DNA of 10,628 nucleotides from a virus (Duplodnaviria > Heunggongvirae > Uroviricota > Caudoviricetes): IMG/VR virus record IMGVR_UViG_2547132488_000018, positions 1 to 10,628 of that record; one strand, 5' to 3'. How positions within the stretch are numbered: position 1 is the stretch's first letter; each line of letters opens with the position of its first letter. Made by a program: the position numbers and the translations under genes. Under the pieces are notes generated by a model. That model saw only the letters and a program-made list of their open reading frames with translations. It searched no databases and was not told the origin of the DNA. This document shows positions 1 through 10,628 of this stretch, piece after piece.

Positions 1-127
1 CTGCAGTTCTCTGGAGTCACAGGCCCATTTCAGATCCTGTACCGCCTTAGCTTTCTTGATCATCCATTCGTAAATTTCATCATCGGTATAACCTGGCGCG
101 ATGATGACGGGTTCTGGTTTCTGCATA
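1..127 (-). CDS. Hypothetical protein, 5' portion only (start codon at 125-127, continues past window start)
   Basis: Reverse complement of 1-127 begins ATG and reads MQKPEPVIIAPGYTDDEIYEWMIKKAKAVQDLKWACDSRELQ with no stop; GAGGAA Shine-Dalgarno about 7 nt upstream on the minus strand (complement of 131-136). Not in the ORF track because it is truncated. Confidence 0.4.
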
Positions 128-315
128 TTGATTCCTCGCAGTACTGTTTCCCCTTAACGCCGGGGGGGCGGAACAAAAACCTGCTGCATAGTTAAAGTTG
201 AACCCTGCCGTCATGTTCTTACGCCTCGGGCTGGCTACTTACCCCCTGACCACTGCCTGGTAACTCGAAGTATTGCCCTGCGTTCTGTGGGGCGGGGTGG
301 GTTGGTGGAAATAAT

Positions 316-358
316 CTACAATTAAAAACTGTTTTGTGTCAACAGTTTTTAATTGTAG
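316..358. promoter_or_regulatory. Perfect 18-bp inverted repeat with 7-bp spacer; putative distal operator sharing a half-site with the repressor/cro intergenic palindrome
   Basis: CTACAATTAAAAACTGTT (316-333) + TTGTGTC + AACAGTTTTTAATTGTAG (341-358), exact reverse complements. Core AAAAACTGT / ACAGTTTTT recurs at 1354-1390. Confidence 0.4.
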
Positions 359-366
359 AGCTGGGC

Positions 367-392
367 AAAAAAACTCCCTCGAATGAGGGAGT
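367..392 (-). terminator. Rho-independent terminator for the leftward repressor-antitoxin-toxin operon
   Basis: Stem ACTCCCTC (373-380), loop GAAT, stem GAGGGAGT (385-392); on the minus strand the hairpin is followed by a U-run (complement of A-run 367-373). Lies about 17 nt past the parE-like stop at 409. Confidence 0.5.
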
Positions 393-408
393 ATGAAAAT
401 TGTTCAGT

Positions 409-696
409 TCAGATAGGGAAGGGAAATTGTCGGCGGGCATGCACAATATTTGCAATTTCAATGCTTGAAGCTGCTACTCGGTACAAAACGATATAATTAG
501 GGTGAACCACAATTTCCCGCAAACCGGATACTCGATCACTTGGCGGATATAGATATGGATGCTCGGAGAGGGCTAAAACAGACGTTTCAATACGTATTTT
601 TAGTCTGCGTGCTGCAGGAATATTTTCCTTAGCAATATAGGCTACGATCTGACGCAAATCATCGCGAGCAGATGGTAGCCATAAAATGGGTAACAT
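409..696 (-). CDS. parE2: ParE/RelE-superfamily type II toxin (ParE2-like)
   Basis: 95-aa ORF (MLPILWLPSARDDLRQIVAYI...VHPNYIVLYRV...IVHARRQ) with a ParE-like residue pattern; its start overlaps the upstream antitoxin stop by 1 nt (ATGA coupling). Family assignment is from recalled motifs, not a search. Confidence 0.75.
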   Translation of the reverse strand: MLPILWLPSARDDLRQIVAYIAKENIPAARRLKIRIETSVLALSEHPYLYPPSDRVSGLREIVVHPNYIVLYRVAASSIEIANIVHARRQFPFPI

Positions 697-887
697 TACT
701 CGCTCCTGTTAGTTACAGCAATTTGAGCAATAAGATTTTCTATTTCAGCCATTACCTCGTCATGTGGAATTGAGGGACGAGGGTCTGCAAGGCTTGACGC
801 CACTTTAGCGCGCAACCATTCGTTGTAACTGTTTTCTTGTTCGGTAGTTTCGAATTCTGAAACTATCGGAGAAAGGGCTGTACTCAT
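696..887 (-). CDS. paaA2: Small antitoxin, PaaA2-like (63 aa)
   Basis: 63-aa ORF immediately upstream of and coupled to the ParE-like gene; the size and position match the PaaA2 antitoxin of the paaR2-paaA2-parE2 module described in E. coli O157:H7. Confidence 0.65.
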   Translation of the reverse strand: MSTALSPIVSEFETTEQENSYNEWLRAKVASSLADPRPSIPHDEVMAEIENLIAQIAVTNRSE

Positions 888-914
888 GGCATAACTCCTC
901 TTCTTGTACAGTGG

Positions 915-1316
915 TCACGCCCGGCGGCTTTTTTGTGCCGCCAACCACCGGGCAATGGTTTCTTCCATTGATTTTTTCTTGTCTTTGATCTCTTGAAGCA
1001 TTTTTTCTTGGTCTTCCTCTGGAAACGCACTAAAAGCCTGAAGCAGTTCGCGTTGGCGAGGACCAATTTTCATCGTGTCAGGGGTGAAAATTTGCTCCCC
1101 CTCTTCAGGTGGCAATAAAAACCAATGCAATGGATGCCCTGTAACCTCAACCAGTTTATCCAAACTTGAGGCTTTAGGTGTAGCCTTACCGCTGACCCAT
1201 TGTTGAACAGTTTGTTGTGTCACACCAATTCTACGGGCCAGCTCAGCCTGGCTCCATCCAGTTTCCTGAAGAAGCTTGCTGATTCTGTACATAGATACTT
1301 CTAGAGCGTTCATCAT
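915..1316 (-). CDS. paaR2: XRE-family helix-turn-helix transcriptional repressor (PaaR2-like, CI-analog position)
   Basis: 133-aa ORF with a classic HTH (SQAELARRIGVTQQTVQQWVSGKATP); first gene of the leftward operon and divergent from the cro-like gene. No obvious Shine-Dalgarno upstream of the ATG at 1314-1316, so possibly leaderless. Confidence 0.7.
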   Translation of the reverse strand: MMNALEVSMYRISKLLQETGWSQAELARRIGVTQQTVQQWVSGKATPKASSLDKLVEVTGHPLHWFLLPPEEGEQIFTPDTMKIGPRQRELLQAFSAFPEEDQEKMLQEIKDKKKSMEETIARWLAAQKSRRA

Positions 1317-1337
1317 TATTCAATTTTACAGGTAAAT

Positions 1338-1413
1338 ACTGTTAAAAGCATCACAATAAAAAACTGTTGATCATATACAGTTTTTTATTGTAGGCTTTGC
1401 CTGTAGTTTTTTA
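1338..1413. promoter_or_regulatory. Divergent promoter/operator region between repressor and cro-like genes
   Basis: Inverted repeat CAATAAAAAACTGT (1354-1367) / ACAGTTTTTTATTG (1377-1390) with 9-bp spacer, plus further ACTGTT/CTGT motifs at 1338-1348 and 1401-1413. AGGAGG Shine-Dalgarno at 1414-1419 precedes the ATG at 1426. Confidence 0.5.
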
Positions 1414-1425
1414 GAGGAGGGCAAA

Positions 1426-1698
1426 ATGCTAGATAGCACTCGCGAAAAAATTAGGCAGAAATACACTCAAGCTGAAATAGGTCGTTATATGGGGGTCGCT
1501 CAACAGACTGTTTGGCAATGGTTTAGCTTTGGCGTTCCCCCAAAGCAGGTAATTCCGTTATGTCAGCTAATGAAGTGGGAAGTTACCCCGCATGAAATTC
1601 GCCCTGATATTTATCCTAACCCAACCGACGGGCTGCCTTGTGGAAATAAGTGTATGGCGAATGAATCACTGGCGGTGAACAATGAAAATCACCCCTGA
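1426..1698 (+). CDS. ydaS: Cro/YdaS-like HTH regulator
   Basis: 90-aa ORF with HTH (YMGVAQQTVWQWFSFG) and a C-terminal HEIRPDIYP motif recalled from YdaS-family proteins; strong Shine-Dalgarno; first rightward gene. Confidence 0.65.
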   Translation: MLDSTREKIRQKYTQAEIGRYMGVAQQTVWQWFSFGVPPKQVIPLCQLMKWEVTPHEIRPDIYPNPTDGLPCGNKCMANESLAVNNENHP

Positions 1699-2203
1699 AC
1701 AGGTTTGTGAGGCTCTGGATGCCTGGGTATGCCGACCAGGAATGACACAGGAGCAGGCGACGATATTAATCACGGAAGCATTCTGGGATCTGAAAGAACG
1801 CCCAAACATCGATGTTCAACGCGTCACGTTTGATGATGGCGCGGTTGATCAACGGGCGCTGGGCGTTAACCGGGTGAAGATATTCGAACGCTGGAAAGCT
1901 ATCGACACCAGGGATAAGCGTGAAAAATTCACGGCGCTGATTCCGGCAATTATGGAGGCGATCCGGTTCAGTGATTTCAGGTTGTATTGTGAAATTACTG
2001 ACGGAAAAAGCATTACATACATGATCGCCGGGTTAAACAAAGAATATGGCGATGTGGTGGAGTCCGGGCTGCTTTTTGCGGATCCAGCTGTTGTGGAACG
2101 TGAGACTGACGAGCTTATAGAAAAAGCCATTGCTTTCAAGCGTGCGTATCGTCAGCAATATCAACAAAAAGCCGGATGGAATTATGAGTCTTCTTTTTGC
2201 TGA
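1682..2203 (+). CDS. ydaT: YdaT-like protein (functional CII analog in CP-933P-type prophages)
   Basis: 173-aa ORF overlapping the cro-like gene by 17 nt; second rightward gene; the KREKFTALIPAIMEAI segment resembles what I recall of YdaT. Identity rests on recall and synteny. Confidence 0.55.
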   Translation: MKITPEQVCEALDAWVCRPGMTQEQATILITEAFWDLKERPNIDVQRVTFDDGAVDQRALGVNRVKIFERWKAIDTRDKREKFTALIPAIMEAIRFSDFRLYCEITDGKSITYMIAGLNKEYGDVVESGLLFADPAVVERETDELIEKAIAFKRAYRQQYQQKAGWNYESSFC

Positions 2204-3149
2204 ACGCCCACTGGTTATTAACACGCAGCTGGCGATGAAAATTGGTCTGAACGAAGCCATCGTGTTGCAGCAGCTGCATTACTGGTTGAGAGATACCGGT
2301 TCCGGCATGGAATGTGATGGTGTTCGCTGGATTTATAACACAACGGAACAATGGCTGGAACAGTTCCCGTTCTGGTCAGAGTCAACGTTAAAACGCGCAT
2401 TTGCAAGTCTGAAAGCGCTGGGGCTTTTGCGTTGTGAAAAGCTCAACAAATCAAAGCGTGACATGACTAATTTTTACACGATTAATTACGAGAGCGAGCT
2501 TTTAGATGGTGGCAAAGTGAGCGAATCCATCAGGTCAAAATGCGCCGCTCCATCAGGTCAAAATGACACGATGGAAGAGGCCAAAATGGCACGCTCCATT
2601 GGCTCAAAACGACCCAATGTCATCGGGTCAAAATGGCCTGATGATCTTACAGAGAATACAACAGAGATTACTACAGAGAATAAAAACACTTCTCGTCCGG
2701 AAGCTTCGCAACCGGACCAGCAGGCGGCTGAACAGGATTTTTTAACCCGACACCCTGACGCGGTTGTGTTCAGTGCGAAAAAACGCCAGTGGGGAAACCA
2801 GGAGGATTTAGCGTGTGCGCAGTGGATCTGGGGACGAATCGTGAGTCTTTACGAACAGGCTGCCAGCGATGATGGTGAGATCACGCGACCGAAAGAACCC
2901 AACTGGACTGCATGGGCCAATGACGTGCGCACAATGCGGATGCTTGATGGCAGAACTCACAGACAAATTTACGAAATGTTTGGTCGGGTACAGCGGGATC
3001 CATTCTGGGTAAAAAACGTCATGAGCCCGTCAAAGCTTCGCGAAAAATGGGACGAACTGGTCATCCGCCTGGGGCGTTCGCCTGTACAGCGTTGTGTGAA
3101 TCACATTTCTGAACCGGACACCGAAATTCCGCCGGGCTTCAGGGGGTAA
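2181..3149 (+). CDS. Phage replication initiation protein (lambda O-like / replisome organizer) with internal origin
   Basis: Winged-helix-like N-terminal domain, a low-complexity linker encoded by the iteron DNA, and a C-terminal domain. Start chosen at ATG 2181 (MSLLFAERP...) with GGATGG upstream; the ORF track's upstream in-frame start at 2130 is the alternative. Confidence 0.6.
   Translation: MMSLLFAERPLVINTQLAMKIGLNEAIVLQQLHYWLRDTGSGMECDGVRWIYNTTEQWLEQFPFWSESTLKRAFASLKALGLLRCEKLNKSKRDMTNFYTINYESELLDGGKVSESIRSKCAAPSGQNDTMEEAKMARSIGSKRPNVIGSKWPDDLTENTTEITTENKNTSRPEASQPDQQAAEQDFLTRHPDAVVFSAKKRQWGNQEDLACAQWIWGRIVSLYEQAASDDGEITRPKEPNWTAWANDVRTMRMLDGRTHRQIYEMFGRVQRDPFWVKNVMSPSKLREKWDELVIRLGRSPVQRCVNHISEPDTEIPPGFRG
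2526..2690. repeat. Replication origin: five iterons at 23-bp spacing followed by an AT-rich tract
   Basis: TCCATCAGGTCAAAATG at 2526-2542 and 2549-2565 (identical), degenerate copies at 2572-2588, 2595-2611 and 2620-2636, then AT-rich 2641-2690 with ACAGAGAAT-type repeats. Same architecture as ori-lambda inside gene O. Confidence 0.6.
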
Positions 3150-3189
3150 GTGTTAATTTCTGGTCATGAGGTAATTTTCAGGAGGGCTT

Positions 3190-3612
3190 GTGGCAAAAGT
3201 ATTTACACAAGAAGAGCGGGAAAAAATTAAGGGGCTGGTTGTTGAACTTGTACGCCAGAGCGGGCGCGAGACGTTACGACAACTGGAAGCTAAGACAGGT
3301 GCGACAAGATATTTAATAAGCGTTCTTGCCAGAGAGCTGGTTGCCAGTGGCGATGTATACAACTCTGGTTACGGGTTATTCCCGTCTGAACAGGCGCGTA
3401 AGGACTGGCAAAACGCCCGCAAAAAACTCTCGAGGGCAAAGCTGAAGAAAACATCTGTGGTTGATCCGGACCTTATCTGGTCGTTACCAGACGGAGAAAT
3501 ACGCCGCTACGACAGGCGTCAGAACATAATCTGTCGCGAGTGCCGGAAAAGCAAGGTTATGCAGCGTGTGCTGGCGTTTTATCAGGGTAATTTTCAGGAG
3601 GTGATGACGTGA
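3190..3612 (+). CDS. Hypothetical protein (GTG start)
   Basis: 140-aa ORF; GTG start at 3190 preceded by AGGAGG (3181-3186); its stop overlaps the next gene's GTG start (GTGA at 3609-3612). Confidence 0.55.
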   Translation: MAKVFTQEEREKIKGLVVELVRQSGRETLRQLEAKTGATRYLISVLARELVASGDVYNSGYGLFPSEQARKDWQNARKKLSRAKLKKTSVVDPDLIWSLPDGEIRRYDRRQNIICRECRKSKVMQRVLAFYQGNFQEVMT

Positions 3613-3908
3613 GGGTGAGAGTCTATATTGCCGGTCCAATGACCGGGTATAAAAATTTCAACCGTGAGGCGTTCCACAAGGCGGAAGAGGAACTGAAACG
3701 GGAAGGGCATACAGTCTTAAACCCGGCAGTACTTCCAGACGGGCTGACACAGCCACACTACATGGATATTTGCATGGCAATGATTCGTTGTGTGGATGCG
3801 ATTTACATGCTGAAAGGCTGGCAGCGGTCAGCAGGCGCTAAGGCAGAACTGGCGCTGGCGGAGAAACTGGGGCATGCAGTTATTTTCCAGGAGGCAAACA
3901 GTGAGTAA
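3609..3908 (+). CDS. DUF4406 / nucleoside 2-deoxyribosyltransferase-like protein
   Basis: 99-aa ORF whose N-terminal VYIAGPMTG motif is characteristic of the nucleoside 2-deoxyribosyltransferase-like fold; GTG start with AGGAGG at 3595-3600. Confidence 0.55.
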   Translation: MRVRVYIAGPMTGYKNFNREAFHKAEEELKREGHTVLNPAVLPDGLTQPHYMDICMAMIRCVDAIYMLKGWQRSAGAKAELALAEKLGHAVIFQEANSE

Positions 3909-4365
3909 CCAATGGCGACCAGATATTTGTCCTATAACCGGACGTGCATTTTTCATGTGGATTGAGCATCCGAAATTGGGCAATGTGCCGACGTATGGCG
4001 GCCCATTAGACAGTTACACCATTCCAACAAAGGACAGCGATGGTGAGTTTTCGTGTGAGCGTTACGATCATGATTTCGGTGGCTGGGTAGAAAGCGAATG
4101 TCTTGGGTTATATCTGATTGATGATAAAGAACAATGCAGAGTCTACGAACTCGAGGAACGCGTTAAAGAGCTGGAAGCGCGGGAAGTTCATTTGCCGACT
4201 CGCTACGGTCTTCGATATGGACACCCGATAAATGATGATGAACGCCACGTCATGATACCTAAAGAAAATGGCTGCTGGCTTTATCTGGCTGACTTAGAAC
4301 ATGAACTACGTGTTGCTGGCATTCATATCAAAGGAGAGGAGTATGGAAATAAAACCAGAAGATGA
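3901..4365 (+). CDS. Hypothetical phage protein
   Basis: ORF 3874-4365 trimmed to the in-frame GTG at 3901 (MSNQWRPD...), which has AGGAGG at 3887-3892 and overlaps the upstream stop by 8 nt. Confidence 0.5.
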   Translation: MSNQWRPDICPITGRAFFMWIEHPKLGNVPTYGGPLDSYTIPTKDSDGEFSCERYDHDFGGWVESECLGLYLIDDKEQCRVYELEERVKELEAREVHLPTRYGLRYGHPINDDERHVMIPKENGCWLYLADLEHELRVAGIHIKGEEYGNKTRR

Positions 4366-4699
4366 GTTAAGTAATATTGTTTTATTTCCGGCAAAAGAGG
4401 ATGACCCACGTAATCAGGTTAATTTTCTTTATGAGCCATCGGAAAGACCATATTGCCATCACGCTTCTGTCCGGGTTGACGAAAAAGAGCGTCAGGTCCG
4501 CTGTAAAATCTGCGGTGCAGTTGTGGAGCCGTTTGACTGGATGCTCTCAGTGGCGAAAAGAGAAACCAGACTGGCAGATGATGTAAGGCTATTGCGCCAG
4601 GAGGAACAGGAAAGGCGGAAAAATATAGAAAAGTTAATTCAGATTGAGCGTAACGCGAAAGCGCGGATACGCAGGGCGACAAAATCCAGAACTGAATAA
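4343..4699 (+). CDS. Hypothetical protein with CxxC pair and charged coiled-coil-like C-terminus
   Basis: ORF 4301-4699 trimmed to ATG 4343 (MEIKPEDEL...) with GGAGAGGAG Shine-Dalgarno; contains CHH...CKIC. Confidence 0.5.
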   Translation: MEIKPEDELSNIVLFPAKEDDPRNQVNFLYEPSERPYCHHASVRVDEKERQVRCKICGAVVEPFDWMLSVAKRETRLADDVRLLRQEEQERRKNIEKLIQIERNAKARIRRATKSRTE

Positions 4700-4794
4700 T
4701 TAAATTTAGCACTGTTAAAAATTTTATCCTTAACCGGAGGGATTTCTGCACCCTCAGAACATCAGGAGGCCGCCCTAAAGGGCGGTGATAAATA

Positions 4795-5271
4795 ATGCAA
4801 GACATCAAAGAAAATATCAGACAACAGCTTTACGGGTTTTATATTGCTTATGATTTGTGGCTGAGTAATGGGGCGAAACCAGGTGGGGTGTTTTCTCGAA
4901 ATTATGGTTTATGCGCCAATCTTTTCGATTATCTCACATCAATCGGTACCTCCAGCGAAGCGGCACTGGAACAATTACACGCTGATTTCAGAAGTGCCGG
5001 GCTGTATGAGGTGTTGCCATTTAACGAGAGTAATGGGCATTACCATGAAGAAAAAAGGAACAACATGTGCCATATGAACCCGTCGCGGGTGGCGTGGGTC
5101 AGGGCGCAGATGGTACAGGCAGTGCCGGACGGACTGGTTAAGGCTGTACGCTTCTATGAACAGGTAAAGTGTGAGAATCCGCCAGCTGAAACCGGAGCAT
5201 GGAAAGACGCTGTTGACTGGGTACTCAAGGAGGCCTGCCAGGCTGTAAACATTGGCAACAAAGGAGAGTGA
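4795..5271 (+). CDS. Hypothetical phage protein
   Basis: 158-aa ORF; AGGAGG at 4764-4769 and GGTGA nearer the ATG; its stop overlaps the downstream start region. Confidence 0.55.
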   Translation: MQDIKENIRQQLYGFYIAYDLWLSNGAKPGGVFSRNYGLCANLFDYLTSIGTSSEAALEQLHADFRSAGLYEVLPFNESNGHYHEEKRNNMCHMNPSRVAWVRAQMVQAVPDGLVKAVRFYEQVKCENPPAETGAWKDAVDWVLKEACQAVNIGNKGE

Positions 5272-5272
5272 T

Positions 5273-5491
5273 GTGCCTACATTATTCAGAAAAGAATATC
5301 CGCGAAAAAGTAGAGCGACAGAATTTTTGTTTCTCATTCTGTTTATCGTGTTGATGATACCGATATCCCCGCTAATTTTTGTCTGGGCAATCGGGAAAAT
5401 AATTGAGCCAGTTATTGAATTGTATAACGACGTGGTATGGGCGTCGTTCAACACACTGCACAATAAAATTAATCCGTATAAGGAAGGTTGA
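5273..5491 (+). CDS. Small hydrophobic (single-transmembrane) protein
   Basis: In-frame GTG at 5273 with AAGGAGAG at 5261-5268; hydrophobic core FLFLILFIVLMIPISPLIFVWAIG. The ORF track's TTG at 5252 is the alternative start. Confidence 0.4.
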   Translation: MPTLFRKEYPRKSRATEFLFLILFIVLMIPISPLIFVWAIGKIIEPVIELYNDVVWASFNTLHNKINPYKEG

Positions 5492-5492
5492 A

Positions 5493-5873
5493 ATGACCAT
5501 TACCACAAAAGAGCAGCAGAGATACAGTAAACAAGATTTAGGAGACGCTCTGGATTTTTATCTTTTTGAAGGTGATTTTGGTGCGCCATTCGATATTGAG
5601 TTATCGAATAAAATCGTTACCTCTCGCGGTGAATATACATGTCACATATGCGCCGGGAAAATCTCAAAGGGTGAAATACACCGCAGCACAACATGGAAAT
5701 TTGATGGCGAGCTTATGTCCTATAGATGCTGCAATGAGTGCTGTGTAGCGATGGTTAAAAGCGTCAATTATGAATATGAAGACAAAGACCCGGTAGAAGC
5801 ACGTTATGCGCTTGGGGAGGAGCGCAGGAGAGCAAAAACGCTGGAAAACCACTTGCGCACTAAAGGAGATTGA
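5493..5873 (+). CDS. Cys-rich (putative zinc-binding) hypothetical protein
   Basis: ORF 5403-5873 trimmed to ATG 5493 (MTITTKEQQ...) with AAGGAAGG Shine-Dalgarno; contains CHICAGK and CCNECC. Confidence 0.55.
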   Translation: MTITTKEQQRYSKQDLGDALDFYLFEGDFGAPFDIELSNKIVTSRGEYTCHICAGKISKGEIHRSTTWKFDGELMSYRCCNECCVAMVKSVNYEYEDKDPVEARYALGEERRRAKTLENHLRTKGD

Positions 5874-5874
5874 T

Positions 5875-6255
5875 ATGGCACTGACGAAAAAACAACGTGC
5901 AGAACTGCGCATGAAGTTCGGCGGTCGCTGTGCTTATTGCGGCTGCGAACTTGGCGAAAAGTGGCATGCAGACCATGTAAAACCGGTCATTCGTTTTGCT
6001 GGAAATATGCTTCACCAGGAACGTGACGATATATCCAACATGGTTCCGGCATGCCACCCATGCAATCTGCACAAGCATTGCAGTAGCCTGGAAGATTATC
6101 GGCGAATTATCAGTGATGGTCGTCGTGAATTCCTTGCGTCCGGGAAAGGCAAAGCGCTGGTTCGTATGGGATTGGTTGAAATGAAATCTGACCCGGTTGT
6201 GTTCTGGTTTGAAAAATATCAAGAAGGGAGGCTACAGCATGACCACTTTCACTGA
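5875..6255 (+). CDS. HNH endonuclease
   Basis: ORF 5806-6255 trimmed to ATG 5875 (MALTKKQRAEL...) with AAAGGAG Shine-Dalgarno; HNH signature CAYCGCEL...WHADHVKPV...NMVPACHPCNLHK. Confidence 0.7.
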   Translation: MALTKKQRAELRMKFGGRCAYCGCELGEKWHADHVKPVIRFAGNMLHQERDDISNMVPACHPCNLHKHCSSLEDYRRIISDGRREFLASGKGKALVRMGLVEMKSDPVVFWFEKYQEGRLQHDHFH

Positions 6256-6579
6256 CAAAGAAATGATTGAACAAAGAAACGTGGCGTTTTGATTTGCGAG
6301 TCGGGTTCAAAGAGGCTTTCCGCGTACTGCGGCCACACGGAGTTCTCATATTCAAATAGAACGATATGCAGATTTTAGCGTTCACTGACGTGAAACCAGC
6401 AATTGGCCAGCGCACCGGGAAAACGACACAATCCACTGGATTATTTTTGTTAAAGGCGGTTCGGTATGAAAATCAACTTAACAGAGTCAGCACCAGTAAC
6501 CGATAATGAACACGATCAGAGCCTATTGGCGCAGAGGGAATGATTTGAAATAGTAAGATCATTGATTGCTAAGTAAATT

Positions 6580-6603
6580 GTGCTGTAGTGGATACTACAG
6601 CAC
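6580..6603 (-). terminator. Perfect 10-bp stem / 4-nt loop hairpin at the 3' end of the minus-strand island
   Basis: GTGCTGTAGT GGAT ACTACAGCAC, 9 nt beyond the stop of the minus-strand gene ending at 6612. No clean U-run follows, so terminator function is uncertain. Confidence 0.35.
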
Positions 6604-6611
6604 TTCAGAAG

Positions 6612-7013
6612 TCACTTACTATTATTTTTCGCCTTGAGCATCGCGTTGTAGTACGCTATATGAACACTACCGAGCTTTGGATAAGGGACATTATTTTTTC
6701 TTGGTGCCTTAGAGAAAAACTCTGTAGTAAAAGGCAGGATAGATGTTCTGGCTAAGTCAAATTTAGTATCGTAGCTTAACCCAGATAGACCAAAAACATC
6801 ATCGCCATCAGCTTTTTGAATAAGAAACTCTGATGGGTAGAGTTTGTGTGTTTTTTGGCTCGTACCGAATGCAACTATGATTTCATGCTTTAGTTTCGAT
6901 ACACCTAATACCATACCTGGTCTCATTTTGGGAGTATCTCCCCCCCATTCTTCAGATGGTTGAAACCAAACAATATCGCCAGTCTTTGGCAATGGTTTTA
7001 TTTTCGAATGCAT
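6612..7013 (-). CDS. PemK/MazF-like putative toxin
   Basis: 133-aa ORF; the N-terminal GDIVWFQPSEEWGGDTPKMRPGMVLGVSKLKHEIIVAFGTSQ matches the MazF/Kid pattern (G-D/E-I, K/R-RP-x-V/L-L/V, then a hydrophobic strand ending TS). AT-rich codon usage; contains a G7 tract on the coding strand (complement of 6940-6946). Confidence 0.5.
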   Translation of the reverse strand: MHSKIKPLPKTGDIVWFQPSEEWGGDTPKMRPGMVLGVSKLKHEIIVAFGTSQKTHKLYPSEFLIQKADGDDVFGLSGLSYDTKFDLARTSILPFTTEFFSKAPRKNNVPYPKLGSVHIAYYNAMLKAKNNSK

Positions 7014-7021
7014 TTTTATAC

Positions 7022-7297
7022 CTACAATAGCATTTCGAAACTCTCATCCGGCGTTTGGTTAGTTTTCGATCTTTCATGTAGTGTCCGGAATTGAGCTTCG
7101 GTCAAGGGCCCATCATCTTGCTCATAAGCCGGGATGTATTTTTCCACTAAGTTTACGAGTGCAAAATGCATGAGGTCTGTTTTACTCATACCAGTAGCTT
7201 TCATTAGTTTTTCAAAGGATTCAGAACTGATACCGTTGATACCATCTTCTTCTTTGAATCTAAGGAGGAAGCTGTCAGGCTTTTTCATGCGTGACAT
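7022..7297 (-). CDS. Putative antitoxin / small DNA-binding protein (possible ribbon-helix-helix)
   Basis: 91-aa ORF 8 nt upstream of the MazF-like gene; AAGGAG Shine-Dalgarno on the minus strand; predicted strand-helix-helix pattern and an acidic C-terminal tail. The fold is inferred, not demonstrated. Confidence 0.45.
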   Translation of the reverse strand: MSRMKKPDSFLLRFKEEDGINGISSESFEKLMKATGMSKTDLMHFALVNLVEKYIPAYEQDDGPLTEAQFRTLHERSKTNQTPDESFEMLL

Positions 7298-7650
7298 AAG
7301 GACTCCTTAATGTTTAATTTCCGAACTGTATCTAAATCAAAAAGATAGTTATGCGTGTTTTGACCTACTTTAGACAGTGCTTTCACTTCAAGCATTTTGG
7401 ATCTTATGAGCTTATACATAATCGCAAGTTTGAAGACTATTAAGCGTGTAATTAACAAAATTAGCATAATCAATGGGATGCTAATTTTGAATTTTTCATT
7501 TTTTACTGAAACAGTTTGGGGAAGATTTTGCCCCCCCCGAACTCGAAGGAAGTCAAAGAAATGGCCATGTTTTTCAACTATATCTATTAAAAGTTGTTCA
7601 ATTCTTTCGGTGAGCATTAACATATGCTTAACATCTGTGCTTAAGGTCAT
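7285..7650 (-). CDS. Hypothetical small protein with hydrophobic segment; first gene of the island operon
   Basis: 121-aa ORF with an AAGGA Shine-Dalgarno; overlaps the next gene by 13 nt; hydrophobic stretch IPLIMLILLITRLIVFKLAIM; contains a G8 tract on the coding strand (complement of 7531-7538). Confidence 0.4.
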   Translation of the reverse strand: MTLSTDVKHMLMLTERIEQLLIDIVEKHGHFFDFLRVRGGQNLPQTVSVKNEKFKISIPLIMLILLITRLIVFKLAIMYKLIRSKMLEVKALSKVGQNTHNYLFDLDTVRKLNIKESLCHA

Positions 7651-7683
7651 AATGAATCCTTGTCGATAGAGATTTTCCCAATA

Positions 7684-7712
7684 AAGATATCAAAATGATA
7701 TCTTCTTTTCAA
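7684..7712 (-). promoter_or_regulatory. Candidate sigma70 promoter with overlapping palindromic operator for the island operon
   Basis: On the minus strand: -35 TTGAAA (complement of 7707-7712), 17-bp spacer, -10 TATCTT (complement of 7684-7689). Palindrome AGATATC-AAAAT-GATATCT (7685-7703) overlaps the spacer and -10. Confidence 0.35.
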
Positions 7713-7976
7713 GGTGGTTTTACTTTGGGAGCGAATGCAACAACTTCTTGCTATGTGTTGAGATCAATTGATACTAGGTGTCGAAAATCTTGGTATGAGG
7801 CTGTATGTTCTTTAGTTGTATATCATTGTTCAGGACTACAGCGTTAAGAAGTACACGAAAGACAAGCAAGCTGTGCGCTGCGGTCATGCTGTGCCGTCGC
7901 CGTTCGTTGGGTGTTGGTGAGGGCTAATTTGGCGGAGCTATACCAGTCGAAACGAATAGCAGCCTGACCTATAATT

Positions 7977-8002
7977 CCCTCGATAATCCGAGGGTATTTT
8001 TT
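7977..8002 (+). terminator. Hairpin plus T-run immediately upstream of the ATG at 8003; also sequesters its Shine-Dalgarno
   Basis: CCCTCG (7977-7982), loop ATAATC, CGAGGG (7989-7994), then TATTTTTT. A TATAAT hexamer sits at 7970-7975 and the GAGGG Shine-Dalgarno for the 8003 gene lies in the 3' arm. Confidence 0.4.
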
Positions 8003-8248
8003 ATGTTTGATTTCAACATCGCAGCAAAATTAAAAGAAGAGCAGGACAAGGTTAGCGTTGATCTTGCAGCGTCCGGCGTTGCGTACAAGGAGAGCCTTAA
8101 TCAGCCAGTAGTTGCCGAACACGTAGCAAGAGAGCTGCCGGAACATCTGCGCGAATACTTCATGGACCGCGTTCGCCTTAGCCTGACACTGCCAAAAGCA
8201 TCCGATCCGTGTTATCTGGATATGGCAGTGCAGAACGAGAAAAAATAA
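8003..8248 (+). CDS. Hypothetical phage protein (81 aa)
   Basis: ORF with GAGGG Shine-Dalgarno 8 nt upstream; its stop overlaps the next ATG (TAATG at 8246-8250). Confidence 0.55.
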   Translation: MFDFNIAAKLKEEQDKVSVDLAASGVAYKESLNQPVVAEHVARELPEHLREYFMDRVRLSLTLPKASDPCYLDMAVQNEKK

Positions 8249-8502
8249 TGGGCTGCCTGATTGTAAGCGGTATCAACTTTTACATCTTGGCCGAAGGCGA
8301 GGCATATCCAGACCCGAATTCTGATGATACGTATTTCGGTGCTTATGCTGTGTTCCCGTCAGAAGGTAAATGAGTAGCACAAAAATACTTCTGGACTGGT
8401 AACTGGCACGACATAACTGACCAGATATTTAACACCGAAAACGAGGCGTTTAACTTCACTTACGAATACGCATTTGCGCCGGAAAATTGCCACAAATTTT
8501 AA
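8248..8502 (+). pseudogene. Small ORF interrupted by an in-frame TGA at 8371-8373 (nonsense pseudogene or readthrough candidate)
   Basis: ATG at 8248 reads 41 codons to TGA (8371-8373); the same frame then continues open for 42 more codons to TAA at 8500-8502, directly followed by a strong terminator. Confidence 0.4.
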
Positions 8503-8527
8503 CCCGCTTTGGCGGGTTTTGTTTTTT
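8503..8527 (+). terminator. Rho-independent terminator
   Basis: CCCGC (8503-8507), loop TTTG, GCGGG (8512-8516), followed by TTTTGTTTTTT (8517-8527). Confidence 0.65.
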
Positions 8528-8599
8528 CCTGGCATTCTGGTTTACAATCCTCACGCTAGCCTGAACAACTGGCACCTGCTGCGCCAGCAGAGACAACCG

Positions 8600-8878
8600 A
8601 TGGCGCACGATACCAAATTGCACAATTCTAATGATTCTGCCGTCCTTGCCAGCAGGCACGGGCGGTGTTCTCACGCATTCAAATATGACTGGTATCAGCA
8701 TGACCCCTGCACTGAAGAACAGGCCGAATGGCTGATTCAGAACTACCGCAGACGTGGGTATGAGTTTAAGAAAGCCCTTAGTCTCGACTACCGTCACTGG
8801 ATAATCTCAGTCAGATTGCCTTACTCCGAATGCCCACCGCGTCCGTCCCGTACATTCCAGCAACGCACCTGGAGGTAA
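8600..8878 (+). CDS. Hypothetical protein (92 aa)
   Basis: ORF 8474-8878 trimmed to the first ATG after the terminator (8600, MAHDTKL...); weak Shine-Dalgarno; a possible promoter TTGTTT-17 bp-TACAAT lies at 8519-8547; its stop abuts the next gene's start. Confidence 0.4.
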   Translation: MAHDTKLHNSNDSAVLASRHGRCSHAFKYDWYQHDPCTEEQAEWLIQNYRRRGYEFKKALSLDYRHWIISVRLPYSECPPRPSRTFQQRTWR

Positions 8879-8879
8879 C

Positions 8880-9935
8880 GTGCGGGTATTACTTCGACCT
8901 GTTCTGGTACCGGAACTCGGGCTGGTGGTCGTTAAGCCGGGCCGTGAATCCATGCCGGTATTCCACAATACCCGGGTACTGGTGGAGCCGGAACCGAAAA
9001 GCATGCGTAATCTGCCGTCCGGGGTCGTTCCTGCCGTTCGCCAGCCGCTGGTGGAAGACAAAACATTGCTGCCGTTCTTCAGTAACGCACGGGTAATTCG
9101 TGCTGCTGGTGGTGCTGGTGCATTGTCTGACTGGCTGTTGCGCCATATTAAATCCTGCCAGTGGCCACACGGCGATTATCATCACAGCGAAACCGTTATT
9201 CACCGTTATGGTACCGGCGCAATGGTGTTGTGCTGGCACTGCGACAACCAGCTGCGTGACCAGACATCCGAATCACTCGAGCAACTTGCTCATCAAAACC
9301 TGTCAGCATGGATGATTGACGTCATACGCCATGCAATGAATGGCACGCAGGAGCGGGAATTATCGCTGGCTGAATTATCCTGGTGGGCGGTCTGCAATCA
9401 GGTGGCGGACGCGCTACCAGAGGCAGCATTACGTCGTTCTCTGGGGTTACGTGCGGAAAAAATTCGCTCAGTATACCGCGAGAGCGACATCGTACCGGGA
9501 GAGCAGACCGCCACCAGCATACTGAAGCAGCGCACAAAAAATCTTGCGCCGGTGCCTCACGCCCACCAGCAAAACCCGCCACAGGAAAAGACGGTGGTCA
9601 GCATTGCCGTTGATCCGGAGTCACCGGCTCAGTATCTCCAGCGCCAGAAATCACAACGAGAAGAGATGCCTGTATACACGCGCTGGGTAAAAACGCAGAA
9701 ATGCATGACGTGCGGTAATCAGGCAGATGATCCGCATCACATCATTGGTCATGGACTGGGAGGGATGGGAACAAAGGCTGATGATTTGTTTGTTATTCCG
9801 CTGTGCCGTAAATGTCATAACGAACTGCACGCCGGGGTAAAAGATTTTGAAGAAAAACACGGCAGCCAGCTGTTGTTGCTGATTCGTTTTTTAATGCACG
9901 CGAGAAATTCGGGTGTCCTGAAGTGGAAAGCATGA
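8880..9935 (+). CDS. DUF968-like phage protein (YdfU-like) with C-terminal Cys/His HNH-like motif
   Basis: 351-aa ORF; GTG start with GGAGG at 8871-8875; C-terminal CMTCGN...HHIIGHGLGG...CRKCHNELH; sits immediately upstream of rusA, as ydfU-family genes do in E. coli cryptic prophages. Confidence 0.55.
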   Translation: MRVLLRPVLVPELGLVVVKPGRESMPVFHNTRVLVEPEPKSMRNLPSGVVPAVRQPLVEDKTLLPFFSNARVIRAAGGAGALSDWLLRHIKSCQWPHGDYHHSETVIHRYGTGAMVLCWHCDNQLRDQTSESLEQLAHQNLSAWMIDVIRHAMNGTQERELSLAELSWWAVCNQVADALPEAALRRSLGLRAEKIRSVYRESDIVPGEQTATSILKQRTKNLAPVPHAHQQNPPQEKTVVSIAVDPESPAQYLQRQKSQREEMPVYTRWVKTQKCMTCGNQADDPHHIIGHGLGGMGTKADDLFVIPLCRKCHNELHAGVKDFEEKHGSQLLLLIRFLMHARNSGVLKWKA

Positions 9936-10301
9936 ATGACTGAACGGATAGAATTTGTTTTGCCTTACCCGCCGACGGTGAATACCTACTGGCGACGTCA
10001 TGGCAATACGTATTTCATCTCGGAGGCCGGAAAGCGTTATCGCCGTGATGTGGCGCTAATTGTTCGCCAGCAGCGGCTGAAATTAAACCTGTCCGGAAGG
10101 CTGGCGATAAAGATTATTGCAGAGCCACCGGATAAGCGCCGTCGTGACCTGGACAATATTCTGAAAGCACCACTGGATGCGCTGACGCATGCCGGACTTC
10201 TCATAGACGACGAGCAGTTTGATGAAATCAATATTGTGCGCGGTCAGCGCGTTCCTGGGGGGCGGCTGGGCGTGAAGATTTACAAAATTGAGAGTGAGTG
10301 A
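9936..10301 (+). CDS. rusA: Crossover junction endodeoxyribonuclease RusA (Holliday junction resolvase)
   Basis: 121-aa ORF with RusA hallmarks (LPYPPTVNTYWRRHG..., RRRDLDNILKAPLDALTHAG..., DDEQF); start directly follows the upstream stop. Confidence 0.85.
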   Translation: MTERIEFVLPYPPTVNTYWRRHGNTYFISEAGKRYRRDVALIVRQQRLKLNLSGRLAIKIIAEPPDKRRRDLDNILKAPLDALTHAGLLIDDEQFDEINIVRGQRVPGGRLGVKIYKIESE

Positions 10302-10309
10302 TCGTAAAT

Positions 10310-10628
10310 ATGATATACCCGGAAATTACAGGCAAAAGCGGCGAGCATTTACGTCTAAAAACGCTGGAAGCCGTCTGGATCCAGGGGAAATTACGGATGT
10401 GGGGGCGTTGGTCGTATATAGGTGGTGGCAAAACAGGAAATATGTTCAATCAGTTGCTGGCATCCAAAAAACTGACAAAAACCGCGATCAATGAAGCCCT
10501 GCGTAGACTCAGGGAGTCAGGGATTGATAAACCAGAGCTGGAAGCATTCTTGCGAGAGATGATCGCTGGCAGACAGAAGAGCTGGTTGTCTCACTGTACT
10601 GATGCAGAGGCGTTACGCATTGATGGGG
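10310..10628 (+). CDS. Putative late-gene antiterminator Q, N-terminal part (truncated by window end)
   Basis: ATG at 10310 is open to the window end (MIYPEITGKSGEHLRLKTLEAVWIQGKLRMWGRWSYIGGGK...); position right after rusA is where Q sits in lambdoid phages; loose WG-W and LL-SK resemblance to recalled QuuD-type Q proteins. Confidence 0.4.
   Translation, partial: MIYPEITGKSGEHLRLKTLEAVWIQGKLRMWGRWSYIGGGKTGNMFNQLLASKKLTKTAINEALRRLRESGIDKPELEAFLREMIAGRQKSWLSHCTDAEALRIDG

Follow-up and report, generated by a model that had tools for sequence, protein, structure and literature searches.

Two long palindromes about 1 kb apart bracket the repressor and toxin-antitoxin genes of a lambdoid prophage, which raises the question of what these palindromes do and to which of the neighbouring genes they belong. 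The stretch that carries them, 10,628 bp from a virus of the class Caudoviricetes (IMG/VR virus record IMGVR_UViG_2547132488_000018, positions 1 to 10,628), hereafter called the window in its full length, is the early region of the prophage, with replication and nin-region genes following ydaT. The genes for a CI-like repressor, a PaaA-family antitoxin and a ParE-family toxin lie contiguously on its minus strand and end at one common terminator; the proximal palindrome is situated between the repressor gene and ydaS, the distal one beyond the toxin gene. A previous sequence-only reading had taken the palindromes for a pair of operators comparable to the left (OL) and right (OR) operators of phage lambda, bound by the same regulators and accompanied by a leaderless cI-like gene. 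This pairing is supported by covariation among relatives and by published experiments on the homologous prophage CP-933P, while the 43-bp operator with the half-site AAAAACTGT, which was part of the same proposal, does not hold. The palindromes are very probably the OL/PL and OR/PR sites of a lambda-like switch, PL and PR being the leftward and rightward promoters, with the operator OR3 lying over PRM, the promoter of a leaderless repressor gene.

Proposed operator boxes and promoters

Both inverted repeats are real, with limits slightly wider than had been proposed. The distal palindrome has perfect 19-nt arms (315-333 and 341-359) around a 7-nt loop, where 18-bp arms within 316-358 had been read, and the proximal palindrome (1353-1391) has perfect 15-nt arms (1353-1367 and 1377-1391) around a 9-nt loop, where 14-bp arms within 1354-1390 had been read. 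The 9-mer AAAAACTGT, the supposed half-site, is indeed present in all four arms and has exactly these four occurrences in the window, but homology between the distal and the proximal unit extends further, across 41 nt, at 78% identity in direct and 83% in inverted orientation. What is repeated is a 15-bp box, ACA(A/G)-N7-(C/T)TGT or ACAR-N7-YTGT, and each long palindrome consists of two such boxes, inverted, around a −35 hexamer.

This pattern has exactly five matches in the 10,628 bp (318-332, 342-356, 1328-1342, 1353-1367 and 1377-1391), with a chance expectation of about 0.76 per window and with none of 200 shuffles reaching five. Two of the boxes are found at the distal site and three in the intergenic stretch that separates the repressor gene from ydaS, their centres being spaced by 24 bp at the former and by 25 and 24 bp at the latter. 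The third proximal box also accounts for one of the two ACTGTT-type motifs noted earlier beside the palindromes, as 1338-1348 is the end of the genuine box 1328-1342. The other motif, at 1401-1413, was considered as a fourth operator and rejected; it is not a box and varies freely among relatives.

A promoter scan of positions 1-1800 returned a sole site above thresholds, TTGACA-18-TAGATT, on the minus strand and inside the distal palindrome. The −35 hexamer sits in the palindrome loop and has its first T in common with box 342-356, and the −10 hexamer has its first T in common with box 318-332. By this arrangement the distal site is the predicted leftward promoter PL, with OL1 in the spacer and OL2 upstream of the −35. 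PR, placed in the same way, reads TTGATC, 18 nt, TAGGCT and is followed by the ribosome-binding site GAGGAGG and ydaS. The 109-bp intergenic region (1317-1425) thus holds three boxes, the PR hexamers and the −10 of PRM. The elements are the following.

313-318, minus strand: PL −10 hexamer TAGATT, behind an 18-nt spacer; predicted start near 306
315-359, no strand assigned: distal long palindrome, comprising OL2, the PL −35 and OL1
318-332, no strand assigned: OL1 box ACAATTAAAAACTGT, within the PL spacer, 1-nt overlap with the −10
337-342, minus strand: PL −35 hexamer TTGACA, from the promoter scan; TTGAC(A/G/T) in every class
342-356, no strand assigned: OL2 box ACAGTTTTTAATTGT, directly upstream of the PL −35, 1-nt overlap
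1323-1328, minus strand: putative PRM −10 hexamer TAAAAT, with the repressor ATG at 1316 following 6 nt later; 5' RACE (rapid amplification of cDNA ends) is available for the CP-933P homologue (PMC8630535)
1328-1342, no strand assigned: OR3 box ACAGGTAAATACTGT, within the PRM spacer, centre at −19 from ATG/+1
1353-1367, no strand assigned: OR2 box ACAATAAAAAACTGT, between PRM and PR, centre at −44 from the PRM start
1367-1372, plus strand: putative PR −35 hexamer TTGATC, placed as in PL; TTGA(T/C)(C/T) in nearly all relatives
1377-1391, no strand assigned: OR1 box ACAGTTTTTTATTGT, within the PR spacer, 1-nt overlap with the −10
1391-1396, plus strand: putative PR −10 hexamer TAGGCT; TAnnnT pattern retained in relatives

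The repressor ATG had been described as lacking a Shine-Dalgarno sequence, which is confirmed, the TAAAAT hexamer ending 6 nt ahead of it. From this geometry and the missing Shine-Dalgarno we infer that the PRM transcript starts at the A of the ATG and is leaderless; a −10 hexamer stands 6-7 nt ahead of the repressor ATG in all immunity classes where it is readable, CP-933P, in which the start has been mapped, included. At the PRM −35 position, no hexamer matches the consensus better than 2/6. A terminator-like hairpin at 1387-1407 on the plus strand (ATTGTAGGC/GCCTGTAGT and a T run), which spans the PR −10 and the predicted start, is not conserved in the relatives L043 or L044 and is probably incidental.

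Relatives and immunity classes

Relatives of the repressor are encoded by all loci of the comparative set, of which 49 come from viral contigs, one from an Arsenophonus genome and two from E. coli chromosomes; a scan of one genome per species with the repressor yielded one locus, that of Arsenophonus, and the viral-contig scan gave far more. Down to 69% identity, relatives with the same recognition helix as the window, TQQTVQQW, show three strict OR boxes, at −75, −51 and −26 from the start codon; Arsenophonus (49% identity) keeps the outer two, at −82 and −33, with a degenerate middle box. The box ends are invariant in 23 distinct OR variants, and the four spacer bases after the PR −35 are hypervariable; a single variant departs from TTGA(T/C)(C/T), and only the O157 copy departs from TAnnnT. 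In this copy (L002, E. coli O157 AR-0430, NZ_CP044140.1) the PR −10 has changed from TAGGCT to TGGGCT, and through expansion of an A-run the OL boxes are spaced by 26 bp and the PL spacer has 20 nt, changes which look like promoter decay in a cryptic prophage.

Absence of the distal palindrome from homologous prophages had been named beforehand as an observation that would refute the pairing. This objection does not arise: 48 of 48 loci of this repressor class keep, beyond the repressor operon, the succession of box, TGAC, box and AGATT/AAATT, with a box spacing of 23-26 bp. The long palindrome at OL is gone in four of them (L043, L044, L045 and L003), in which both boxes are retained. What lies between the repressor gene and OL is, moreover, variable, being paaA-parE in the window, nothing in L033 and in Arsenophonus (L003), and unrelated open reading frames (ORFs) of 120-123 aa in L044 and L045. 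Because the OL pair persists without cargo or with other cargo, OL belongs to the immunity region and not to the toxin-antitoxin module; the view that the distal site serves to bracket the toxin-antitoxin genes has accordingly to be given up for that of an operator which is primarily that of PL.

As a side observation, the OR2 and OR1 arms of one lineage agree with each other at more positions (window 15/15, L044 14/15, L045 13/15) than do orthologous boxes of different lineages (11-12/15), which suggests concerted change through gene conversion or through selection for symmetric arms. In L043-L045, no such concerted change is shown by the OL pair.

Sequence comparison with the Protein Data Bank (PDB) gives the phage 434 repressor, with its N-terminal domain, as the best match of the window repressor (E 2e-5, 40% over 48 aa). 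Opposite Gln28, Gln29 and Gln33 of 434 the window repressor has Gln in each case, its sequence being TQQTVQQ and that of 434 TQQSIEQ. In co-crystals of the 434 repressor, these three glutamines contact the ACAA half-site. An AlphaFold model of the window repressor (predicted local distance difference test score, pLDDT, of 82) has a five-helix helix-turn-helix (HTH) domain, which a disordered linker joins to two helices at the C-terminus (86-96 and 100-132), and for the latter the fold search gave no match.

Further immunity classes were reached through ParE-bearing loci. Their repressors have the C-terminal ~50 residues in common (...LLQ.F.AFPEEDQ...ARWLAAQK.RRA) and differ in their N-terminal DNA-binding domains, and so do the boxes.

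Class A, the window: recognition helix TQQTVQQW; box ACAR-N7-YTGT
Class B, L048 and L111: recognition helix AQQSVQKW; box of the ACACTTTTAAAGTTA type
Class C, L103 and L130: repressor of 166 aa with a different N-terminal DNA-binding region; box AATAGCAnTGCTATT
Class D, L095: recognition helix SQQTVQRW; box AC(A/T)C-N7-G(T/A)GT, likewise 15 bp
Class E, CP-933P (L134): MQKKE...; GTTTAGT-type box

The four classes examined and CP-933P have class-specific boxes at OR and OL alike, together with a common C-terminal domain, cargo and PL leader. The OL layout of box, −35, box and −10 is found in classes A to D, and CP-933P has GTTTAGT-type repeats around TTGACT. That the repressor reads both sites is most strongly supported, among the computational evidence, by this joint change of the OL and OR boxes with the DNA-binding domain. 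YdaS also changes with the class; in class A, YdaS and the repressor both carry a QQTVxQW helix and are 42% identical over 57 aa (E 1e-8). In class D the helix has Arg for Gln at the position of 434 Gln33 and box position 4 changes from A/G to C, which fits a docking mode like that of 434 and rests on one lineage. L182 and L201 (QQSVQRW), considered as replicates of this change, were unusable, as they have a second PaaR-like gene upstream and CP-933P-like OL boxes.

Two observations on the protein family stand beside these results. PaaR-family repressors are modular, with at least five unrelated or diverged N-terminal domains on one C-terminal helical domain of ~50 aa (further to the window, L048/L111, L095, L103/L130 and L134). 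In L182 and L201, upstream of about 1880, PaaR-like genes appear to be arranged in tandem, a protein end of the form ...ARWL..Q.GRRA adjoining the QQSVQRW repressor, and the OL boxes are GTTTAGT.

The proposed switch, its rivals and its surroundings

Dimers of the 133-aa repressor, bound to OR1 and OR2 and to OL1 and OL2, would shut off PR, which is predicted to drive ydaS, ydaT and the replication genes, and PL. From OR2, centred at −44, the repressor may activate PRM, which has no recognisable −35, and at higher repressor concentration OR3 would be filled and PRM repressed. A loop of about 1 kb between OL and OR, held by the PaaR2-type C-terminal oligomerisation domain, possibly aids the repression of PRM; any such loop would not be length-specific, since OL and OR of relatives are separated by about 0.55 to 1.35 kb. 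Indirect support for it comes from the homology of the C-terminal domain to that of PaaR2, which is reported to form octamers, and from the long C-terminal helix (residues 100-132) of the model. Both the loop and an activation of PRM from OR2 are reasonable by analogy and are given an even chance or slightly less. YdaS, with the same recognition-helix motif, would compete for the same boxes in the manner of Cro, and paaA-parE would be passenger cargo, co-transcribed with the repressor gene up to the terminator before OL. As for the regulators, the repressor and YdaS, both named in the sequence-only reading, are supported by covariation and by the footprints in CP-933P, and YdaT, named along with YdaS, is unlikely to take part, as it recognises another repeat in CP-933P.

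Several observations weigh against such a switch. PR agrees with the consensus at 8/12 positions, which is below the threshold of the promoter scan, and was not called. The symmetry of the arms, 19/19 at OL and 15/15 at OR, exceeds the need of two independent operators and is not explained by them. The boxes have 15 bp and not 14 bp, so that a 434-like docking is an analogy, and the fold search with the repressor model returns generic XRE-type HTH folds, best that of Neisseria NHTF, with 434 ranking 12th. OL of CP-933P is reported with three boxes, as opposed to the two of the window. Finally, the function suggested for the window is wholly transferred from the CP-933P homologue, which has a different DNA-binding domain and different operators.

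The perfection of the arms could also mean that each 41-45-bp palindrome is a single large operator with the half-site AAAAACTGT, which a tetramer, for example, would bind as a whole, the dyad falling on the −35. The closer likeness of the OR2 and OR1 arms within lineages than between them would suit such an operator, as would the oligomeric state of PaaR2 (PMC8630535). It is nevertheless very unlikely: the solitary OR3 (1328-1342) has the same 15-bp frame, the four relatives named above have lost the OL palindrome and kept the boxes, box spacing varies between 23 and 26 bp, the conserved positions are the box ends ACA/TGT and not the A-run, and the half-site ACA(A/G) matches what a 434-type helix reads. 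Unlikely, too, is a tetramer or octamer of the PaaR family that clamps a dyad-symmetric composite operator centred on the −35, unlike the tandem cooperative dimers of lambda and 434. If it were true, the perfect and co-evolving symmetry of the box pairs (19/19 at OL, with OR arms that change together in L044 and L045) would be functional, and the family would present a natural set of DNA-binding domains exchanged on a common oligomerisation scaffold, a set that would include a 434-like helix reading a 15-bp site and the class D exchange of Gln for Arg with the change of position 4 to C.

That the palindromes act as RNA hairpins, terminators or DNA cruciforms which insulate the toxin-antitoxin operon has only the slightest probability, even though the distal palindrome came up in the scan as a terminator-like element of the minus strand (19 pairs followed by TTATTTCC), along with the hairpin 1387-1407 on the plus strand. 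A canonical GC-rich terminator (392→366) already ends the operon upstream of the distal palindrome, the stem of which is A/T-rich with 4/19 GC pairs; relatives lose the complementarity of the stem and keep the boxes with the embedded −35 and −10; the predicted PL start lies downstream of the palindrome, which would hence be absent from the PL transcript; and the palindrome matches no Rfam family, chance-level miRNA-precursor matches aside. The 41-nt repeats flank exactly the block of repressor, paaA and parE, class-specific sequence ends right after the PL −10 at the invariant leader, and many heteroimmune classes have the same flanks, all of which would be expected if the repeats were the ends or recombination sites of a mobile cassette that allows immunity modules to be swapped between prophages. 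The probability of this is negligible, as the class-specific region reaches past the right repeat, with ydaS co-varying on its far side, and the repeats consequently do not mark both borders of the module, there is no transposase or recombinase between them, in every class the sites match promoter hexamers to the base, and ordinary homologous recombination in the conserved flanks accounts for the mosaicism. The five boxes are best taken as the operators of PL, PR and PRM, which would assign a function to two conspicuous palindromes and make the toxin-antitoxin pair a passenger in a lambda-type switch instead of a self-regulating unit.

The genes and other features that surround these operators are as follows.

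126→1, minus strand: first gene of the PL operon, cut by the window end; MQKPEPVII...
127-306, minus strand: PL leader, the first ~110 nt almost invariant across immunity classes
366-392, minus strand: intrinsic terminator of the repressor-paaA-parE operon, stem-loop 392→373, T run to 366; kept in relatives
409-696, minus strand: ParE-family toxin, 95 aa (PF05016; PDB match to ParE2 of 5cw7, E 1e-37)
696-887, minus strand: PaaA-family antitoxin, 63 aa (PF21217; PDB match to PaaA2 of 3zbe, E 4e-22)
915-1316, minus strand: CI-like repressor, 133 aa, XRE-type HTH with recognition helix TQQTVQQW and a PaaR2-type C-terminal helical domain
1426-1698, plus strand: YdaS-like Cro analogue, 90 aa, recognition helix AQQTVWQW; Shine-Dalgarno GAGGAGG at 1414-1420
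1682-2203, plus strand: YdaT-like CII analogue, 173 aa (PF06254)

The terminator closes the repressor-paaA-parE operon immediately ahead of OL, and 3' of ydaT the plus strand encodes DUF977, DUF4406, HNH, DUF968 and RusA proteins. By its gene content, the window holds the predicted immunity region of a lambdoid prophage of the PaaR/YdaS/YdaT type, as in CP-933P and CP-933M of O157, and probably a CP-933M-type paralogue (the O157 copy is 92% identical). At least 80% of window positions 1-1800 is present in about 500 complete E. coli genomes, and relatives of the immunity type were found in Salmonella, Klebsiella, Raoultella, Serratia and Arsenophonus. The operator set, the promoters and the terminator can thus be proposed for an immunity type carried by about 500 complete E. 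coli genomes. Within the nin region, a low-GC island on the minus strand (6612-7650; 34-40% versus about 48%) holds ORFs of 133, 91 and 121 aa, the 133-aa ORF having a weak, sub-threshold PemK/MazF-like match (E 6e-4); possibly this is a second toxin-antitoxin or defence moron.

Class-specific sequence ends right after the PL −10 and an invariant leader starts there in every class. Nucleotides 1 to ~110 of the leader (window 200-306) are near-invariant in 70 distinct leaders of the immunity classes (L003-L203) and partly kept in Arsenophonus, and window positions 147-306 have matches in 4299 of 5426 complete E. coli genomes, at a median of two places per genome, unannotated. Searches of the whole window against Rfam at gathering thresholds gave no family, and a permissive Rfam scan of 100-420 gave chance-level matches to miRNA precursors and a tRNA-like structure (TLS) on the palindrome only. 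A structured RNA in the leader was rejected, as its minimum free energy is no better than that of shuffles (z +1.5) and an alifold of 16 diverse leaders shows almost no covariation; likewise rejected were a coding function, as indels break the frame of the small ORF across leaders, and an element like put of HK022 or of another phage, none of 12 matching phage records being annotated there. In related loci the PL operon has ydfA, ydfB, dicB and an exonuclease gene downstream. The first PL gene of the window (1-126, minus strand), which has no Pfam match, differs from the ydfA/DUF1391 gene found there in most relatives, so that the first gene of the PL operon is also mosaic.

Comparison with known systems

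The six operators of phage 434, as read from OL657226, are of the 14-bp form ACAA-N6-TTGT, with ACAG in OR3, and the consensus of synthetic 434 operators is ACAATNNNNATTGT (PMC1636474). The half-site ACAA(T) and its variant ACAG recur in the window boxes, and the PL −35 and −10 of 434 abut the ends of OL2 and OL1 as they do in the window. Conversely, the window box has one extra central base pair (15 bp vs 14 bp) and its repressor another C-terminal domain; the 14-bp version ACAA-N6-TTGT has zero matches in the window; and the box centres lie at about −20.5, −43.5 and −65.5 from the PRM start in the annotated 434 genome and at −19, −44 and −68 in the window, whose OR layout relative to PR follows lambda and not 434. 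YdaS gives no alignment with 434 Cro, and PDB sequence searches with YdaS and YdaT gave no matches. An S24 peptidase domain was looked for in the 133-aa repressor and no Pfam hit was obtained, the hits being of the HTH type plus a weak, sub-threshold C-terminal one to OpuAC, and the alignment with 434 cI stops at residue 67. The resemblance to 434 thus appears limited to the recognition helix and the half-site, and since the site length differs and the S24 domain is missing, the repressor is by sequence not a member of the 434 family. A literature search for the 434 OR1 sequence gave no match, and one for the exact box sequences gave one unrelated match, no operator sequences of this immunity type being found in the papers searched.

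The parallels with lambda concern the architecture. In both, three OR sites are about 24 bp apart, with OR2 near −44 and OR3 near −19 from the PRM start, OR2 overlaps the PR −35 and OR1 the −10, the repressor mRNA is, or in the window would be, leaderless, and a second set of operators is found at PL, 1-2.4 kb away. The place between the repressor gene and OL, which rexAB has in lambda, is taken by paaA-parE. Lambda differs by its 17-bp sites, three of them at OL, compared with 15-bp boxes and two at OL, and by the S24/LexA-like autocleavage domain of its repressor, in place of which the window repressor has a short helical PaaR2-type oligomerisation domain, so that RecA-mediated induction is not expected. 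In the E. coli K-12 prophages Qin and Rac, the dicA/dicC-dicB and racR-ydaS-ydaT loci likewise have divergent repressor and Cro-like genes, which control the ydfA...dicB or the ydaS-ydaT operon; their repressor families and operators differ from those of the window.

The closest known system is CP-933P, in which PaaR2 is CI-like, YdaS Cro-like and YdaT CII-like (Jurenas et al., 2021, PMC8630535) and in which paaA2-parE2 takes the place of rexAB (PMC9986795). PaaR2 and YdaS give footprints on the 97-bp intergenic region and act as repressors of PR and PRM, as seen by electrophoretic mobility shift assays, DNase I footprinting and gfp fusions, and PRM is activated at low PaaR2 (PMC8630535). PL933P, with OL operators beyond the toxin-antitoxin genes, is repressed about 100-fold by PaaR2 and YdaS, the paaR2 mRNA is leaderless according to 5' RACE, N-terminal sequencing and mass spectrometry, and PaaR2 forms octamers, which prompted the idea of looping (PMC8630535). 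YdaT binds another repeat, located between ydaS and ydaT, and leaves PL, PR and PRM unaffected (PMC8630535, PMC9986795). The window has the same gene order (PL/OL, terminator, parE, paaA, repressor, OR, ydaS, ydaT), the same ParE and PaaA families, the invariant PL leader and one motif for OL and OR. PaaR2 and the window repressor are homologous in the C-terminal part (42% over 98 aa, E 7e-21), whereas their N-terminal DNA-binding regions do not align, and it is by the C-terminal domain that the window repressor belongs to the PaaR2 family; the CP-933P consensus GTTTAGTAA is nowhere matched exactly in the window, and its single match with one mismatch, at 4366, is at chance level and far from the operators.

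The window is therefore proposed to be a heteroimmune member of the CP-933P system, for which OL/OR, the leaderless repressor and possible looping were already published in 2021. New here are the operator grammar, the 434-like half-site, the promoter and terminator map and the independence of OL from the cargo. The heteroimmune classes, with one C-terminal domain and one PL leader, offer a natural system for the co-evolution of repressor and operator and could serve to test CI-like DNA looping by a repressor that, other than that of lambda, is not of the LexA type.

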